Assembly (NCBI RefSeq): GCF_003018115.1
Contig: NZ_CP027457.1
Length of the DNA: 64,000 nt
DNA from: Escherichia coli
GTDB taxonomy: Bacteria > Pseudomonadota > Gammaproteobacteria > Enterobacterales > Enterobacteriaceae
Reading direction: 5' to 3' (one strand)
Within the stretch, counting starts at the first letter, position 1; every line of letters begins with the position of its first letter. The notes under the pieces were generated by a model. That model made no database searches. It had not been told where the DNA came from and was given only the letters and a program-made list of their open reading frames with translations. Below, piece after piece: positions 14,067 through 52,205 of this stretch. A program made the translations under genes and the position numbers.

Positions 14067-14167
14067 GCCTGATGCGCTACGCTTATCAGGCCTACACGTA
14101 TCCTGCAATATATTGAATTAGCAGGTTTTTGTAGGCCGGATAAGGCGTTCACGCCGCATCCGGCATG
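14067..14167. repeat. BIME: two REP palindromic units in inverted orientation
   Basis: gcctgatgcgctacgcttatcaggcctac and gtaggccggataaggcgttcacgccgcatccggcatg match the REP consensus. Confidence 0.8.
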
Positions 14168-27042: not shown

Positions 27043-27174
27043 TCCCTTCTCCACACCGTTGCCGCGTTGCGCATTCTACTTTGCGAGTCTGCTCCAGAAA
27101 ATAAATCAAAGTCAGATCAATGCGTTGTGTTTATTTAATGGGGATTTACGATGGCAGGACAGCATAGGGCTGTA

Positions 27175-27330
27175 ACGGTAAAGCCCTCACCGAAGCGAGG
27201 GCTTGAAGGAGAAGGGTTATGATGCGACTTGTCATCATACTGATTGTACTGTTACTCATAAGTTTCCCAGCTTATTAACAGTCAGTCTCAGGGGAGGAGT
27301 CATCCTCCCTTACCCTTACTCACTAAATTA
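27175..27330 (-). ncRNA. sibC: Sib-family antisense RNA (antitoxin) opposite ibs copy 1; ends approximate
   Basis: Inferred from the conserved Ibs/Sib architecture (antisense RNA spanning the whole toxin ORF and its SD); flanking hairpins at 27181..27204 and 27289..27310; ends not determinable from sequence alone. Confidence 0.4.
27219..27278 (+). CDS. ibsC: Ibs-family type I toxin peptide, 19 aa (MMRLVIILIVLLLISFPAY), copy 1
   Basis: ATG ATG start with GAAGGAGAAGGG SD; 19-codon hydrophobic ORF matching the Ibs family; below the ORF-track size threshold. Confidence 0.7.
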   Translation: MMRLVIILIVLLLISFPAY

Positions 27331-27359
27331 GGTCAAAGAATCAACGATGTCAATCAGGG

Positions 27360-27427
27360 CGATGCGGGATGTATCGCCCTGAACCGATCATTTGGATGCG
27401 GGATGTATCGCCCTGAACCGATCATTT
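27360..27427. repeat. 34-bp perfect tandem duplication carrying a hairpin
   Basis: ggatgcgggatgtatcgccctgaaccgatcattt occurs twice head to tail; unit contains the inverted repeat agggcgat..atcgccct. Confidence 0.85.
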
Positions 27428-27600
27428 GATAGACACTTCATCGCCCACGTTTACTGCCGTAATTAATCCCTTATCCCTGCAATGTGTGTCTGTCTTACAT
27501 GACGTTTTACGAGTGCGCTCGAAGAAAAAATTTAAAGGTAGATCAATGCATTGTGCATATTTAAAGAGAGTTTACGATGGCAGGGCAGCATGGGGCTGTA

Positions 27601-27756
27601 ACGGTAAAGCCCTCACCGAAGCGAGGGCTTGAAGGAGAAGGGTTATGATGCGACTTGTCATCATACTGATTGTACTGTTACTCATAAGTTTCAGCGCTTA
27701 TTAACAGTCAGTCACAGGGGAGGAGCAATCCTCCCTTACCCTTACTCACTAAATTA
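27601..27756 (-). ncRNA. sibC: Sib-family antisense RNA opposite ibs copy 2; ends approximate
   Basis: Paralogous to the copy-1 region at about 90 percent identity; same inference. Confidence 0.4.
27645..27704 (+). CDS. ibsC: Ibs-family type I toxin peptide, 19 aa (MMRLVIILIVLLLISFSAY), copy 2
   Basis: Same SD and ORF structure as copy 1, 426 bp downstream; peptide matches IbsC as I recall it. Confidence 0.7.
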   Translation: MMRLVIILIVLLLISFSAY

Positions 27757-27804
27757 GGTTAAAGAATCAACGATGTCAATCAGGGCGATGCAGGTGTGTC
27801 GCCC

Positions 27805-28423: not shown

Positions 28424-28611
28424 GAAGGGAATCTCCGAGATGCCGCCGCAGGCTGTAACCCTTGAACCCTTGGTTCAAGGTGAATGTGTCGTCGCAGTTT
28501 TAAGGCTTCTCGGACGGACCGAGCATGCTCACCAACCGCGGAGCGCCACATTCTTGTGGTATGAAATATCGGCTCAGGGGACTGGCCCGCTTGCGAACAT
28601 CTCAGAGAAAT
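28424..28611 (-). ncRNA. ssrS: 6S RNA
   Basis: Minus-strand sequence reads AUUUCUCUGAGAUGUUCGCAAGCGGGCCAGUCCCCUGAGCCGAUAUUUCAUACCACAAG...GGAGAUUCCCU, matching E. coli 6S RNA as recalled; ends within a few nt. Confidence 0.9.
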
Positions 28612-43829: not shown

Positions 43830-44726
43830 GTGAAACAGGATCTGGCACGCATCGAGCAGTTTCTTGATGCTCTGTGGCTGGAAAAAAATCTGGCTGAAAA
43901 TACGTTGAACGCTTACCGTCGCGATCTGTCAATGATGGTGGAGTGGTTGCATCACCGCGGGTTGACGCTGGCGACGGCGCAAAGTGACGATTTGCAGGCA
44001 TTACTGGCAGAACGGCTGGAGGGCGGGTATAAAGCCACCAGCTCAGCGCGTTTGCTGAGTGCAGTGCGCCGATTGTTCCAGTATCTTTATCGCGAAAAGT
44101 TTCGTGAAGACGATCCCAGTGCGCATCTCGCTTCACCGAAATTGCCCCAGCGTTTGCCAAAAGATTTAAGCGAAGCGCAGGTTGAACGTTTATTACAGGC
44201 ACCATTAATTGATCAGCCACTGGAGCTACGCGATAAAGCCATGCTTGAAGTGTTGTATGCTACCGGGCTGCGTGTCTCTGAACTGGTCGGACTGACAATG
44301 AGTGATATCAGCCTGCGTCAGGGCGTAGTGCGGGTCATTGGTAAAGGCAACAAAGAGCGCCTGGTGCCGTTAGGTGAAGAGGCGGTTTACTGGCTGGAAA
44401 CCTATCTGGAACATGGGCGTCCGTGGCTGCTGAATGGTGTGTCAATTGACGTGTTGTTTCCCAGCCAGCGTGCGCAGCAGATGACGCGACAGACCTTCTG
44501 GCACCGTATTAAACATTATGCCGTGCTGGCGGGTATCGACAGCGAAAAGCTGTCACCGCATGTGTTGCGTCACGCTTTTGCCACTCATTTATTAAATCAT
44601 GGTGCGGATTTACGCGTGGTGCAGATGCTACTAGGCCACAGCGATCTCTCCACCACGCAAATTTATACGCATGTCGCTACCGAGCGTCTGCGGCAACTTC
44701 ATCAACAGCATCACCCGCGGGCGTGA
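43830..44726 (+). CDS. xerD: site-specific tyrosine recombinase XerD (298 aa)
   Basis: GTG start; C-terminal catalytic residues in HxxR...Y context (LRHAFATHLL...IYTHV); chromosomal xerD-dsbC-recJ context, not a phage integrase. Confidence 0.9.
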   Translation: MKQDLARIEQFLDALWLEKNLAENTLNAYRRDLSMMVEWLHHRGLTLATAQSDDLQALLAERLEGGYKATSSARLLSAVRRLFQYLYREKFREDDPSAHLASPKLPQRLPKDLSEAQVERLLQAPLIDQPLELRDKAMLEVLYATGLRVSELVGLTMSDISLRQGVVRVIGKGNKERLVPLGEEAVYWLETYLEHGRPWLLNGVSIDVLFPSQRAQQMTRQTFWHRIKHYAVLAGIDSEKLSPHVLRHAFATHLLNHGADLRVVQMLLGHSDLSTTQIYTHVATERLRQLHQQHHPRA

Positions 44727-44750
44727 TGTCTGAAAAGAACGGGAAGATTT

Positions 44751-45461
44751 ATGAAGAAAGGTTTTATGTTGTTTACTTTGTTAGCGGCGTTTTCAGGCTT
44801 TGCTCAGGCTGATGACGCGGCAATTCAACAAACGTTAGCCAAAATGGGCATCAAAAGCAGCGATATTCAGCCCGCGCCCGTAGCTGGCATGAAGACAGTT
44901 CTGACTAACAGCGGTGTGTTGTACATCACCGATGATGGTAAACATATCATTCAGGGGCCAATGTATGACGTTAGCGGCACGGCTCCGGTCAATGTCACCA
45001 ATAAGATGCTGTTAAAGCAGTTGAATGCGCTTGAAAAAGAGATGATCGTTTATAAAGCGCCGCAGGAAAAACACGTCATCACCGTGTTTACTGATATTAC
45101 CTGTGGTTACTGCCACAAACTGCATGAGCAAATGGCAGACTACAACGCGCTGGGGATCACCGTGCGTTATCTTGCTTTCCCGCGCCAGGGGCTGGATAGC
45201 GATGCTGAGAAAGAAATGAAAGCTATCTGGTGTGCGAAAGACAAAAACAAAGCGTTTGATGATGTGATGGCAGGTAAAAGCGTCGCACCAGCCAGTTGCG
45301 ACGTGGATATTGCCGACCATTACGCACTTGGCGTCCAGCTTGGCGTTAGCGGTACTCCGGCAGTTGTGCTGAGCAATGGCACACTTGTTCCGGGTTACCA
45401 GCCGCCGAAAGAGATGAAAGAATTCCTCGACGAACACCAAAAAATGACCAGCGGTAAATAA
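44751..45461 (+). CDS. dsbC: periplasmic disulfide isomerase DsbC (236 aa)
   Basis: Signal peptide MKKGFMLFTLLAAFSGFAQA; thioredoxin active site CGYC. Confidence 0.9.
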   Translation: MKKGFMLFTLLAAFSGFAQADDAAIQQTLAKMGIKSSDIQPAPVAGMKTVLTNSGVLYITDDGKHIIQGPMYDVSGTAPVNVTNKMLLKQLNALEKEMIVYKAPQEKHVITVFTDITCGYCHKLHEQMADYNALGITVRYLAFPRQGLDSDAEKEMKAIWCAKDKNKAFDDVMAGKSVAPASCDVDIADHYALGVQLGVSGTPAVVLSNGTLVPGYQPPKEMKEFLDEHQKMTSGK

Positions 45462-45466
45462 TTCGC

Positions 45467-47200
45467 GTGAAACAACAGATACAACTTCGTCGCCGTGAAG
45501 TCGATGAAACGGCAGACTTGCCCGCTGAATTGCCTCCCTTGCTGCGCCGTTTATACGCCAGCCGAGGAGTACGCAGTGCGCAAGAACTGGAACGCAGTGT
45601 TAAAGGTATGTTGCCCTGGCAGCAACTGAGCGGCGTCGAAAAGGCCGTTGAGATCCTTTACAACGCTTTTCGCGAAGGAACGCGTATTATTGTGGTCGGT
45701 GATTTCGACGCCGACGGCGCGACCAGCACGGCTCTAAGCGTGCTGGCGATGCGCTCGCTTGGTTGCAGCAATATCGACTACCTGGTACCAAACCGTTTCG
45801 AAGACGGTTACGGCTTAAGCCCGGAAGTGGTCGATCAGGCCCATGCCCGTGGCGCGCAGTTAATTGTCACGGTGGATAACGGTATTTCCTCCCATGCGGG
45901 GGTTGAGCACGCTCGCTCGTTGGGCATCCCGGTTATTGTTACCGATCACCATTTGCCAGGCGACACATTACCCGCAGCGGAAGCGATCATTAACCCTAAC
46001 TTGCGCGACTGTAATTTCCCGTCGAAATCACTGGCAGGCGTGGGTGTGGCGTTTTATCTGATGCTGGCGCTGCGCACCTTTTTGCGCGATCAGGGCTGGT
46101 TTGATGAGCGTAACATCGCAATTCCTAACCTGGCAGAACTGCTGGATCTGGTCGCGCTGGGGACAGTGGCGGACGTCGTGCCGCTGGACGCTAATAATCG
46201 CATTCTGACCTGGCAGGGGATGAGTCGCATCCGAGCCGGAAAGTGCCGTCCGGGGATTAAAGCGCTGCTTGAAGTGGCAAACCGTGATGCACAAAAACTC
46301 GCCGCCAGCGATTTAGGTTTTGCGCTGGGGCCACGTCTCAATGCTGCCGGACGACTGGACGATATGTCCGTCGGTGTGGCGCTCTTGCTGTGCGACAACA
46401 TCGGCGAAGCGCGCGTGCTGGCAAATGAACTCGATGCGCTAAACCAGACGCGAAAAGAGATCGAACAAGGAATGCAGGTTGAAGCCCTGACCCTGTGCGA
46501 GAAACTGGAGCGCAGCCGCGACACGCTACCCGGCGGGCTGGCAATGTATCACCCCGAATGGCATCAGGGCGTTGTCGGTATTCTGGCTTCGCGCATCAAA
46601 GAGCGTTTTCATCGTCCGGTTATCGCCTTTGCGCCAGCAGGTGACGGTACGCTGAAAGGTTCCGGTCGCTCCATTCAGGGGCTGCATATGCGTGATGCGC
46701 TGGAGCGATTAGACACACTCTACCCTGGCATGATGCTGAAGTTTGGCGGTCATGCGATGGCGGCGGGTTTGTCGCTGGAAGAGGATAAATTCGAACTCTT
46801 TCAACAACGGTTTGGCGAACTGGTTACTGAGTGGCTGGACCCTTCGCTATTGCAAGGCGAAGTGGTGTCAGACGGTCCGTTAAGCCCGGCCGAAATGACC
46901 ATGGAAGTGGCGCAGCTGCTGCGCGATGCTGGCCCGTGGGGGCAGATGTTCCCGGAGCCGCTGTTTGACGGTCATTTCCGTCTGCTGCAACAGCGGCTGG
47001 TGGGCGAACGTCATTTGAAAGTCATGGTCGAACCGGTCGGCGGCGGTCCGCTGCTGGATGGTATTGCTTTTAATGTCGATACCGCCCTCTGGCCGGATAA
47101 CGGCGTGCGCGAAGTGCAACTGGCTTACAAGCTCGATATCAACGAGTTTCGCGGCAACCGCAGCCTGCAAATTATCATCGACAATATCTGGCCAATTTAG
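45467..47200 (+). CDS. recJ: single-strand DNA-specific 5-prime to 3-prime exonuclease RecJ (577 aa)
   Basis: GTG start; DHH motifs (VVGDFDADGATS, VTDHH). Confidence 0.9.
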   Translation: MKQQIQLRRREVDETADLPAELPPLLRRLYASRGVRSAQELERSVKGMLPWQQLSGVEKAVEILYNAFREGTRIIVVGDFDADGATSTALSVLAMRSLGCSNIDYLVPNRFEDGYGLSPEVVDQAHARGAQLIVTVDNGISSHAGVEHARSLGIPVIVTDHHLPGDTLPAAEAIINPNLRDCNFPSKSLAGVGVAFYLMLALRTFLRDQGWFDERNIAIPNLAELLDLVALGTVADVVPLDANNRILTWQGMSRIRAGKCRPGIKALLEVANRDAQKLAASDLGFALGPRLNAAGRLDDMSVGVALLLCDNIGEARVLANELDALNQTRKEIEQGMQVEALTLCEKLERSRDTLPGGLAMYHPEWHQGVVGILASRIKERFHRPVIAFAPAGDGTLKGSGRSIQGLHMRDALERLDTLYPGMMLKFGGHAMAAGLSLEEDKFELFQQRFGELVTEWLDPSLLQGEVVSDGPLSPAEMTMEVAQLLRDAGPWGQMFPEPLFDGHFRLLQQRLVGERHLKVMVEPVGGGPLLDGIAFNVDTALWPDNGVREVQLAYKLDINEFRGNRSLQIIIDNIWPI

Positions 47201-47290
47201 CGTCATCTTCTCTATAAAAAAGAGCGTGGATTGGGTACAATCCCGCTCTTATCACCGCATTTTGACTAGCTCAATAAAAGAAATCAGACC

Positions 47291-48389
47291 ATGTTTGAAA
47301 TTAATCCGGTAAATAATCGCATTCAGGACCTCACGGAACGCTCCGACGTTCTTAGGGGGTATCTTTGACTACGACGCCAAGAAAGAGCGTCTGGAAGAAG
47401 TAAACGCCGAGCTGGAACAGCCGGATGTCTGGAACGAACCCGAACGCGCACAGGCGCTGGGTAAAGAGCGTTCCTCCCTCGAAGCCGTTGTCGACACCCT
47501 CGACCAAATGAAACAGGGACTGGAAGATGTTTCTGGTCTGCTGGAACTGGCTGTAGAAGCTGACGACGAAGAAACCTTTAACGAAGCCGTTGCTGAACTC
47601 GACGCCCTGGAAGAAAAACTGGCGCAGCTTGAGTTCCGCCGTATGTTCTCTGGCGAATATGACAGCGCCGACTGCTACCTCGATATTCAGGCGGGGTCTG
47701 GCGGTACGGAAGCACAGGACTGGGCGAGCATGCTTGAGCGTATGTATCTGCGCTGGGCAGAATCGCGTGGTTTCAAAACTGAAATCATCGAAGAGTCGGA
47801 AGGTGAAGTGGCGGGTATTAAATCCGTGACTATCAAAATCTCCGGCGATTACGCTTACGGCTGGCTGCGTACAGAAACCGGCGTTCACCGCCTGGTGCGT
47901 AAAAGCCCGTTTGACTCCGGCGGTCGTCGCCATACGTCGTTCAGCTCCGCGTTTGTTTACCCGGAAGTCGATGACGATATTGATATCGAAATCAACCCGG
48001 CGGATCTGCGCATTGACGTTTATCGCGCGTCCGGCGCGGGCGGTCAGCACGTTAACCGTACCGAATCTGCGGTGCGTATTACTCACATCCCAACCGGGAT
48101 CGTGACCCAGTGCCAGAACGACCGTTCCCAGCACAAGAACAAAGACCAGGCCATGAAGCAGATGAAAGCGAAGCTTTATGAACTGGAGATGCAGAAGAAA
48201 AATGCCGAGAAACAGGCGATGGAAGATAACAAATCCGATATCGGCTGGGGCAGCCAGATTCGTTCTTATGTCCTTGATGACTCCCGCATTAAAGATCTGC
48301 GCACTGGGGTAGAAACCCGCAACACGCAGGCCGTGCTGGACGGCAGCCTGGATCAATTTATCGAAGCAAGTTTGAAAGCAGGGTTATGA
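47291..48389 (+). CDS. prfB: peptide chain release factor 2 (365 aa), produced by programmed +1 frameshift: frame 0 is 47291..47365, +1 frame is 47367..48389
   Basis: Frame 0 encodes [25 protein letters not shown] then an in-frame TGA; the site AGGGGGTATCTTTGAC (SD-like element plus CTT TGA C slippery site) is intact and the +1 frame continues [11 protein letters not shown]... into the long track ORF; GGQ motif present. Confidence 0.9.
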
Positions 48390-48398
48390 GGAACCAAC

Positions 48399-49916
48399 AT
48401 GTCTGAACAACACGCACAGGGCGCTGACGCGGTAGTCGATCTTAACAATGAACTGAAAACGCGTCGTGAGAAGCTGGCGAACCTGCGCGAGCAGGGGATT
48501 GCCTTCCCGAACGATTTCCGTCGCGATCATACCTCTGACCAATTGCACGCAGAATTCGGCGGTAAAGAGAACGAAGAACTGGAAGCGCTGAATATCGAAG
48601 TCGCCGTTGCTGGCCGCATGATGACCCGCCGTATTATGGGTAAAGCGTCTTTCGTTACCCTGCAGGACGTTGGCGGTCGCATTCAGCTGTACGTTGCCCG
48701 TGACGATCTGCCGGAAGGCGTTTACAACGAGCAGTTCAAAAAATGGGACCTCGGCGACATCCTCGGCGCGAAAGGTAAACTGTTCAAAACCAAAACCGGC
48801 GAACTGTCTATCCACTGTACCGAGCTGCGTCTACTGACCAAAGCACTGCGTCCGCTGCCGGATAAATTCCACGGCTTGCAGGATCAGGAAGCGCGCTATC
48901 GTCAGCGTTATCTGGATCTCATCTCTAACGATGAATCCCGTAACACCTTTAAAGTGCGCTCGCAGATCCTCTCTGGTATTCGCCAGTTCATGGTGAACCG
49001 CGGCTTTATGGAAGTTGAAACGCCGATGATGCAGGTGATCCCTGGCGGTGCCGCTGCGCGTCCGTTTATCACCCACCATAACGCGCTGGATCTCGACATG
49101 TACCTGCGTATCGCGCCGGAACTGTACCTCAAGCGTCTGGTGGTCGGTGGCTTCGAGCGTGTATTCGAAATCAACCGTAACTTCCGTAACGAAGGTATTT
49201 CCGTACGTCATAACCCAGAGTTCACCATGATGGAACTCTACATGGCTTACGCAGATTACAAAGATCTGATCGAGCTGACCGAATCGCTGTTCCGTACTCT
49301 GGCACAGGATATTCTCGGTAAGACGGAAGTGACCTATGGCGACGTGACGCTGGACTTCGGTAAACCGTTCGAAAAACTGACCATGCGTGAAGCGATCAAG
49401 AAATATCGCCCGGAAACCGACATGGCGGATCTGGACAACTTCGACTCTGCGAAAGCGATTGCTGAATCTATCGGCATCCACGTTGAGAAGAGCTGGGGTC
49501 TGGGCCGTATCGTTACCGAGATCTTCGAAGAAGTGGCAGAAGCACATCTGATTCAGCCGACCTTCATTACTGAATATCCGGCAGAAGTTTCTCCGCTAGC
49601 GCGTCGTAACGACGTTAACCCGGAAATCACAGACCGCTTTGAGTTCTTCATTGGTGGTCGTGAAATCGGTAACGGCTTTAGCGAGCTGAATGACGCGGAA
49701 GATCAGGCGCAGCGCTTCCTGGATCAGGTTGCCGCGAAAGACGCAGGTGACGACGAAGCGATGTTCTACGATGAAGATTACGTTACCGCACTGGAACATG
49801 GCTTACCGCCGACAGCAGGTCTGGGAATTGGTATCGACCGTATGGTAATGCTGTTCACCAACAGCCATACCATCCGCGACGTTATTCTGTTCCCGGCGAT
49901 GCGTCCGGTGAAATAA
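48399..49916 (+). CDS. lysS: lysyl-tRNA synthetase, constitutive (505 aa)
   Basis: [34 protein letters not shown]-terminus; class II aaRS. Confidence 0.95.
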
Positions 49917-49930
49917 GCATTACGTTATGC

Positions 49931-49958
49931 TCACAACCCCGGCAAATGTCGGGGTTTT
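49931..49958. terminator. bidirectional intrinsic terminator between convergent lysS and idi
   Basis: aaccccg/cggggtt stem flanked by an A-run and a T-run. Confidence 0.7.
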
Positions 49959-50507
49959 TTATTTAAGCTGGGTAAATGCAGATAATCGTATTCTGGCTTC
50001 GCGATTTGTCGCCTGCATCACCATCCACGGACTGAACGCCCACGGCGTGGCATCAATACCGCGTAATACATCAGCTAAATCACACCATTGATAATCCATC
50101 ACTTCATCATCGTTGATCTGTAACGCACTGGTGGTGCGTGCGGCAAATACCGGACACACTTCATTTTCCACAATGCCATTCGGATCGGTGGCGCGATAGC
50201 GAAAGTCAGGATAGATAGATTCAGGAGGCGTAATTTCCACGCCAAGCTCATAACGGCAACGGCGGATCACCGCGTCTTCGTTGCTTTCTCCCAGTTGTGG
50301 GTGCCCACAAACCGAGTTAGTCCACACGCCAGGCCATGCTTTTTTGCTCAGTGCGCGGCGGGTAACTAATAATTGTCCTTTGGCATTAAACAGCCAACTG
50401 GAGAACGCGAGATGTAAGCGGGTGTCTGCCGTGTGTGCGGCATACTTTTCCAGCGTACCCGTGGGAACTCCCTGTGCATTCAATAAAATGACGTGTTCCG
50501 TTTGCAT
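49959..50507 (-). CDS. idi: isopentenyl-diphosphate delta-isomerase, Nudix family (182 aa)
   Basis: [41 protein letters not shown]. Confidence 0.9.
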
Positions 50508-50756
50508 AATTTCTCACATGTAATTCTGATCACTCATCATTATAGATAATTGAAGAGTGAAATGATTAACCAAGTGAGCGTTTATCGACAACCGCCCGTT
50601 TTGAGCGGATGTCGACAGGTAAAAACCATTTAAAAAAGTAGCATCATATATTTGAAGCGACTTTCAATGGCCATTGCAACACAGTCAGAAATGACAGGAA
50701 TAGAGAGAGTAAAAAGCAACAGCAGACTGAATATAGCGCGCATTAAAAAATTCATA

Positions 50757-52205
50757 TTATTCTCCATGCTCATTTTTCTTCAGCTTGCGCATCAGAAGCC
50801 ACATACGTACTGTCCTGACTTTTAAATCTTTATCAGAGACGGATTCCTTCACCAGGTCAGCATGATGCTGGTAGCCATTAAAGAAGACATTCAGCACAAC
50901 GGCGCTAAGGGTTGCGAGCATAATGCCGCTATGCAGCAGCGGTTGCAGTACGGCCGGTAACTTAGAAAAGAAATCGTGAGAGAGCGTCGGAGTCATGCCA
51001 ACGCCGAGACTGATCGCCACAATATAGAGGTTGTAACGGTTGGTGGTGTAGTTACAGCGCGACAGAATTCGAATCCCTGTCGCCAGTACCATGCCGAACA
51101 TCACCAGCCCAGCGCCGCCCAGCACAAATTGCGGAATGGAGGCTACCAGCACCGCCATTTTTGGCACCATGCCAAACAGGATTAATATAATTCCCGAAGA
51201 AATACACACCCAGCGGCTATGAACGCGCGTCACGCTAACCAGGCCAACGTTTTGAGAAAATGACGTGTGGGGGAAGCTGTTAAACGTGCCACCAATCATT
51301 GTCCCTACGCCATCGACACGCAGCCCGCGAATAATATCGTGCGAAGAGAGTTTACGACCGACTATTTCACCCAGTGCCAGGAACATCCCCATCGACTCGA
51401 TAAACACGATGATTAACACGGCAGTCATGGTCAGAATGGAAACGGGATCGAAAATCGGCATACCAAACGACATCGGCGTAACAATCGCAAACCACGAGGC
51501 ATCATGTAGCCCGGATAAATTGACTTCATTCATCATCCACGAAAGTAAAAAGCCAAATACAATCCCCAGTAATACGGCGACGTTGGACATAAATCCTTTC
51601 GCATAGCGAGTAATGAGCAAGATAAAAATTAAGACGGCAAAGGAGATACCTAAATAAACGGGATTACCATATTGCGGATTCCCTTTACCTCCGGCGGCCC
51701 AGTCAATACCCACCTGAATGATGCTAAGCCCGATAGAAGTAATAACCACACCGGTAACCAGTGGCGGAAATAAAGGCATCAAGCGACCGATAAGTGGCGC
51801 TAATAATGTGGTGATAAAACCCGCGGCGATAGTGGCACCAAATATCCCCAGCAGGCCGATATCCGGGTTCATCCCAATGGCTATCATTGGTGTTACAGCA
51901 GCAAAGGTCACCGACATAATCACCGGCAGGCGGATCCCCATAAAGCGGCCGATACCGATACATTGCAATAATGTGACGATCCCGCAGCAAAAGAGATCCG
52001 AGCTAATGAGCATCGCAATAGCATCTTTTGAGAGGCCCAGTCGGTCACCAATCATAAGAGGAACAGCGACTGCACCTGCGTACATGACAAGGACGTGTTG
52101 CAGACCGAGTATGATCAGCTTTCCTGGTGATAATATGCGGTCAACCTCATCAGTTGGGCGGTCTTGCCCAGAAGATGAGGGAAGTTGGGAATCTATGGCG
52201 CTCAT
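50757..52205 (-). CDS. uacT: uric acid/xanthine-family NCS2 permease (482 aa)
   Basis: MSAIDSQLPSSSGQDRPTDEVDR N-terminus at ATG 52205; NCS2 hydrophobic profile; the track ORF has a spurious 43-codon extension. Confidence 0.85.
   Translation of the reverse strand: MSAIDSQLPSSSGQDRPTDEVDRILSPGKLIILGLQHVLVMYAGAVAVPLMIGDRLGLSKDAIAMLISSDLFCCGIVTLLQCIGIGRFMGIRLPVIMSVTFAAVTPMIAIGMNPDIGLLGIFGATIAAGFITTLLAPLIGRLMPLFPPLVTGVVITSIGLSIIQVGIDWAAGGKGNPQYGNPVYLGISFAVLIFILLITRYAKGFMSNVAVLLGIVFGFLLSWMMNEVNLSGLHDASWFAIVTPMSFGMPIFDPVSILTMTAVLIIVFIESMGMFLALGEIVGRKLSSHDIIRGLRVDGVGTMIGGTFNSFPHTSFSQNVGLVSVTRVHSRWVCISSGIILILFGMVPKMAVLVASIPQFVLGGAGLVMFGMVLATGIRILSRCNYTTNRYNLYIVAISLGVGMTPTLSHDFFSKLPAVLQPLLHSGIMLATLSAVVLNVFFNGYQHHADLVKESVSDKDLKVRTVRMWLLMRKLKKNEHGE

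Follow-up and report, generated by a model that had tools for sequence, protein, structure and literature searches.

The programmed +1 frameshift site of prfB in a 64-kb stretch of an Escherichia coli genome

Programmed frameshifting in prfB, the gene for RF2, was the first such event described in bacteria and remains the best studied. Experiments summarised in PMC12421855 describe a competition between RF2-dependent release and a +1 slip, a stimulation of the slip by SD:anti-SD pairing, and the resulting feedback on RF2; frameshifting depends on that pairing, on which stop codon is present and on the concentration of RF2 (PMC12421855). The motif was found in 64% of 12,753 genomes, with AGGGGG, CTTT, TGA and the next C all classed as 'hyper-conserved' (PMC12421855). 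Ribosome profiling of the endogenous gene in isogenic strains gave a frameshifting efficiency of about 28% with the RF2 of K-12 and about 21% with an Ala246 RF2 (PMC5373646).

Here we analyse a prfB locus within a stretch of 64,000 nucleotides of E. coli DNA, referred to throughout as the window. Positions 47291-48389 on the + strand are, with very high confidence, E. coli prfB with an intact, canonical autoregulatory programmed +1 frameshift site. This site is already known and already annotated, and it brings no new biology. The value of the analysis lies in annotation only, in that a gene caller without a recoding model would split or truncate an essential gene.

Reading frames and elements of the frameshift site

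Read directly from the window sequence, frame 0 of prfB starts at the ATG at 47291 and runs through 25 sense codons (47291..47365, +), whose translation aligns with residues 1-25 in E. coli RF2 structures, before it meets an in-frame TGA at 47366-47368. The +1 frame is open for 340 codons from GAC 47367 to its stop, the TGA at 48387-48389, and supplies RF2 codons 26-365 together with the stop codon (47367..48389, +), including the SPF tripeptide, Ala246 and GGQ. Upstream, the +1 frame is closed by a TAA at 47310, and from there to 47508 it holds no ATG, GTG or TTG; its first start codon is the ATG at 47508, which is Met73 of the joined protein. Because of this TAA and the lack of an earlier start codon, the program-made list of open reading frames gives the +1 frame only as 47508-48389, and it represents the gene solely by a 25-aa ORF at 47291-47368 and a 293-aa ORF at 47508-48389. 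A naive call of prfB would consist of the 25-codon ORF plus the 293-aa ORF from Met73. The correct coding sequence is join(47291..47365, 47367..48389).

The original prediction had been made from the same letters, and its frame coordinates hold: it ended the frame of ATG 47291 at TGA 47366..47368 after 25 codons, continued the +1 frame from 47367 to 48389, recognised that the ORF track showed only the downstream part from an internal Met, and warned that naive annotation would yield a truncated or split gene. It had also placed an internal SD-like element ahead of CTT TGA C, and the 16-mer AGGGGGTATCTTTGAC at 47354-47369 has exactly this composition, AGGGGG followed by TAT, CTT, TGA and C.

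The SD-like AGGGGG (47354..47359, +) ends 3 nt before the CUU shift codon and 6 nt before the UGA. It lies exactly 3 nt upstream of the slippery run, the spacer being the Tyr24 codon UAU (TAT in the DNA; 47360..47362, +), which occupies the E site once CUU has entered the P site. The slippery run CUU-U (47363..47366, +), an element defined in PMC12421855, is made up of the Leu25 codon CUU at 47363-47365, directly 5' of the stop, and of the first base of the stop, T 47366. Codon 26 counted from ATG 47291, near the 5' end of the gene, is a premature, RF2-specific UGA, and with the C at 47369 immediately 3' of it forms the weak context UGAC (47366..47369, +; PMC12421855). In both the AGGGGG element and its spacing, the site equals the published consensus (PMC12421855). 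When duplex energies were computed against the textbook 3' tail of 16S rRNA, the pairing of AGGGGG with the anti-SD came to -12.6 kcal/mol, the strongest value among all 12-nt windows in prfB.

Could such an arrangement arise by chance? Even with a tolerance of one mismatch, the motif AGGGGGNNNCTTTGAC occurs a single time in the 64-kb window, and dinucleotide-preserving shuffles of the window contain 0.06 matches on average. The decisive argument against chance is the location of the motif inside the RF2 gene, not its count. A predicted fold of the local RNA (47340-47440) gave z = -1.24, which is not significant and supports no stimulatory structure, and Rfam returned no family at the site, either in a permissive scan of 44000-51000 or in a gathering-threshold scan of the whole window. 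The absence of an Rfam family is expected, since the prfB signal consists of a linear motif rather than a structured RNA, and the two null results fit a linear signal at this position.

Because the site is identical to the experimentally studied K-12 sequence, the slip, its stimulation by the SD-like element and the autoregulation can be transferred to the window, and we propose the following course of events. Ribosomes would initiate at ATG 47291, read 25 codons and then pause; at this point the P site would contain the CUU at 47363-47365 with peptidyl-tRNA-Leu bound to it, and the A site the weak UGA-C (47366-47369). Abundant RF2 would recognise the UGA and release a 25-residue peptide. When RF2 is scarce, the pause would last, AGGGGG would pair, three bases behind the P site, with the 16S rRNA 3' end, and the tRNA-Leu would re-pair one base forward, from CUU to UUU. 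GAC 47367-47369 would then be read as Asp26, and reading on to 48389 would give full-length, 365-aa RF2. RF2 would in this way compete with the +1 slip, and its synthesis would therefore be self-limiting. It is a matter of speculation whether the released 25-residue frame-0 peptide might have a function of its own.

One alternative is that the frame is restored not by the ribosome but in the mRNA, through slippage of RNA polymerase at a T or G run; short homopolymers, G5 and T3, do indeed exist at the site. Runs of three to five bases are, as a matter of general knowledge, far shorter than those known for productive transcriptional slippage. The published dependence on SD:anti-SD pairing, stop-codon identity and RF2 concentration indicates a translational event (PMC12421855), as does the fall in ribosome occupancy across the prfB UGA in profiling experiments (PMC5373646). 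Being implausible on runs of this length and in conflict with the dependence on RF2 concentration and the anti-SD, transcriptional slippage was rejected, and we consider it highly improbable in comparison with a +1 slip of the ribosome.

The joined product and its identity as RF2

Joining 47291-47365 to 47367-48389 yields a 365-aa protein that aligns over residues 1-365 to E. coli RF2 structures and is collinear with RF2 across the junction, with no gap at 25|26; the original prediction had staked its reading on such an alignment, and the alignment bears it out for both 1gqe_A and 1ml5_Z. The best structure matches were 1gqe_A (E = 8e-241) and 1ml5_Z with eight further entries (E = 1e-240). 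A single residue distinguishes the product from the K-12 chain in 1ml5_Z and related entries (A246 in the window, T246 in K-12), and a single residue distinguishes it from 1gqe (L298 in the window, V298 in 1gqe). The NCBIfam model TIGR00020 for prfB scored 525.9 bits against a cut-off of 370, whereas RF1 models reached about 304-306 bits, under their cut-offs of 400 and 423. The class I RF2 signature is present, with the SPF stop-codon recognition tripeptide at residues 205-207 (47904-47912, +), and so is the catalytic GGQ motif at residues 250-252 (48039-48047, +).

Since the +1 frame has its first start codon at 47508, one may consider the locus as two independent cistrons, one for a leader peptide of 25 aa and the other for an RF2 truncated by an internal start at Met73. 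The intervening residues 26-72 (47367-47507), however, are open in the +1 frame and match RF2 domain 1 residue for residue, and solved full-length RF2 structures contain residues 1-25 together with 26-72. The junction sequence GYLDYDAK is present in published E. coli RF2 structures, and RF2 homologues from elsewhere align across the junction in 114 of 114 cases among the matches listed from a pattern scan (see below). In the 1980s, Craigen and colleagues reportedly demonstrated the joined RF2 product by protein sequencing. Related work (Craigen and Caskey, 1986) is cited in PMC5373646. Since residues 26-72 are encoded, conserved and found in full-length structures alongside residues 1-25, the two-cistron model was rejected, and we give it a negligible probability.

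Residue 246 is Ala, encoded by GCG at 48027-48029 (+), in place of the Thr246 of K-12; the RF2 of the window is for this reason a different allele from that of K-12, and the window does not come from a K-12 strain. The allele with Ala246, known as 'B-type', is canonical and the more active of the two, and Thr246 of the K-12 protein is a peculiarity of the laboratory lineage (PMC5373646). As the window combines an identical site with Ala246 RF2, the more active form, it is conceivable that the autoregulatory set-point of this strain differs from that of the K-12 laboratory reference, but we regard this as very unlikely. If it were true, the pairing with Ala246 should lower frameshift efficiency and RF2 levels; a set-point effect of Ala246 RF2 has already been reported (PMC5373646).

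The locus among E. coli genomes and its surroundings

Of 5,426 complete E. coli genomes, 5,425 contain a match to the 1,401 bases around prfB, a single one in each; in several strains the identity is 100%. One genome of the 5,426 gave no match to the region, and in one further genome the match lies on a record labelled plasmid. The original prediction had proposed that the site be compared with prfB of K-12, and the 161 bases centred on it are 100% identical to those of E. coli K-12 MG1655; the same 161 nt are at least 99% identical in 5,151 of the 5,425 genomes, and in an alignment of the window with K-12, BH100 and SB0258h1 all but three of the 161 columns agree. In the RefSeq annotation of strain F9792 the identical prfB locus is a CDS in two pieces (WP_001701073.1), whose ends correspond to window positions 47291 and 48389 and which bears the note 'programmed frameshift'. 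The gene of K-12 MG1655 (b2891) is a two-piece CDS as well, with recJ and lysS as neighbours in both; Thr246 in MG1655 against Ala246 in the window sets the two proteins apart and leaves the site unaffected.

The public assembly of E. coli BH100 substr. MG2014 (NZ_CP024650.2) has AGGGG instead of AGGGGG, a G5-to-G4 deletion that brings the whole of its prfB into one frame (…LRGIFDY…), and the gene is annotated there as an ordinary single-piece CDS without a frameshift (WP_105166511.1). Either the homopolymer was misread in sequencing, or RF2 autoregulation has been lost naturally in this strain.

These comparisons bear on the possibility that prfB of the window is a pseudogene, or that its frame break is an error of sequencing or assembly. 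A naive ORF call, which yields only a 25-codon ORF and a 293-aa ORF from an internal Met, might be taken to favour such a reading, and the one-base G5 deletion in the BH100 MG2014 assembly is a reminder that homopolymer indels do occur in assemblies. Against it, K-12 MG1655 and the other genomes inspected have the identical frame break at the same base, within a 161-nt region conserved at the counts given above, and both halves of the gene encode a perfectly conserved RF2. The break falls, moreover, inside a canonical motif conserved across bacterial phyla. RF2 is essential in E. coli, no second RF2 copy is known in this species, and the search returned one match to the prfB region per genome. 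With the break common to the inspected E. coli genomes, both halves conserved and the motif canonical, a pseudogene or sequencing error was rejected and deserves practically no weight. The original prediction, which had listed the break as known recoding so that it would not be mistaken for a pseudogene, is thus upheld by the RefSeq two-piece CDS with its 'programmed frameshift' note and by the RF2-continuous product.

NCBIfam matches identify the neighbouring ORFs as DsbC (44751-45461), RecJ (45467-47200) and LysS, the lysine-tRNA ligase (lysS, 48399..49916, +), which starts 9 nt past the prfB stop. The gene order xerD-dsbC-recJ-prfB-lysS-idi is the standard one in E. coli, and the RefSeq annotation of the identical locus agrees with the order recJ-prfB-lysS. 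A terminator-like hairpin with a T-run follows lysS on its 3' side (49935-49956); prfB and lysS are probably in one operon, as the 9-nt gap and the hairpin after lysS fit such a unit. No sigma-70 consensus promoter was found in the 90-nt spacer between recJ and prfB. Within this spacer, a terminator-like hairpin, GGATTGTACCCAATCC, was called on the - strand at 47228-47243. On the + strand it sits just past the recJ stop and forms part of a longer inverted repeat (AAGAGCG…CGCTCTT, read by eye); it may be the recJ terminator. The initiation region of prfB (47271-47290) has almost no SD complementarity, with a best anti-SD duplex of -1.3 kcal/mol compared with -6.3 kcal/mol at the lysS start.

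Elsewhere in the window, a sib/ibs type I toxin-antitoxin unit is tandemly duplicated at 27080-27794, between serA and fau/ssrS. Two SIB RNAs (27203-27353 and 27629-27779, -) are full matches to Rfam RF00113 with 137.6 and 134.6 bits, and the repeats consist of two direct 289-nt copies that are 90% identical and 426 nt apart. Between the units lies an exact 34-nt tandem duplicate, GATGCGGGATGTATCGCCCTGAACCGATCATTTG, in two copies at 27361-27428. At the serA-fau site F9792 and K-12 have one copy of the unit, and O157:H7 TR01 appears to have none; among 5,425 complete E. coli genomes, only NZ_OZ547461.1 matched the whole 971-bp sib query at 99% identity or more. Although sib loci are known to differ in copy number, two units at the serA-fau site look uncommon among complete E. 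coli genomes, most of which have one.

Collinearity of the window with F9792 was rejected on account of the duplication, a 426-bp tandem repeat at 27.1-27.8 kb that is present in the window. Left of sib (positions 1-27380), identity to F9792 is 99.93%, with 16 mismatches in 27.4 kb; right of it (27506-64000), identity is 99.33%, with 241 mismatches in 36.5 kb. This shift at the sib locus suggests a recombination mosaic. Despite the lower identity on the right side, the 1.4 kb around prfB are 100% identical to F9792. Two further RNA matches are ordinary E. coli features, the 6S RNA ssrS (28428-28611, -; 139.8 bits in Rfam) and a short match to the ES036/CssrF sRNA (14088-14130, -; 40.0 bits against a gathering score of 37.6).

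The motif in other bacteria and its relation to other recoding systems

How specific is the motif to this position? A DNA-pattern scan with AGGGGGNNNCTTTGACNNNGA over about 100,000 species-representative genomes returned at least 120 matches, for each of which the 25 frame-0 codons before the stop were joined to the +1 frame after it and the product was compared with the RF2 of the window; with the motif itself as its seed, the scan reveals where this sequence lies and not how frequent motif-bearing prfB genes are. Among the matches listed, 114 of 120 are RF2 homologues, with a median protein identity of 54%. Their alignments span the junction in all 114 cases, in 103 of them at exactly the same offset. 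Six of the 120 listed matches have no RF2 similarity, some being cut by locus ends. The remaining non-RF2 matches fit chance occurrence, because a pattern of 15 specified bases would be expected a few hundred times in about 6e11 positions.

The spacer codon among the matches listed is most often TAT, as in the window (53 of 120), followed by TCT (31) and TAC (13), and the taxa represented among them include Gamma-, Beta-, Alpha- and Deltaproteobacteria, Bacillota, Bacteroidota, Fusobacteriota and others. We consider the motif close to diagnostic for this position in prfB. Compared with other bacterial prfB sites, for which the consensus AGGGGG-NNN-CTT-TGA-C has been published (PMC12421855), the site of the window has the same elements, spacing and stop and the same position near codon 25. 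Variation among these sites is confined to the spacer and the flanking codons.

Within E. coli, dnaX resembles prfB in that recoding takes place in an essential gene and is stimulated by an upstream internal SD-like element. The dnaX event is a -1 shift on an A AAA AAG heptamer with a downstream stem-loop, and it gives two products with no feedback loop. Unlike dnaX, prfB shifts by +1, does so at a stop codon and has no significant predicted structure downstream (z = -1.24, as above). The eukaryotic antizyme (OAZ) differs from prfB in its effector, polyamines, in its stimulator, which is a downstream pseudoknot or upstream sequence, in its unrelated protein and in its eukaryotic ribosome; like prfB, it makes a +1 shift at an in-frame UGA the sensor for negative feedback.
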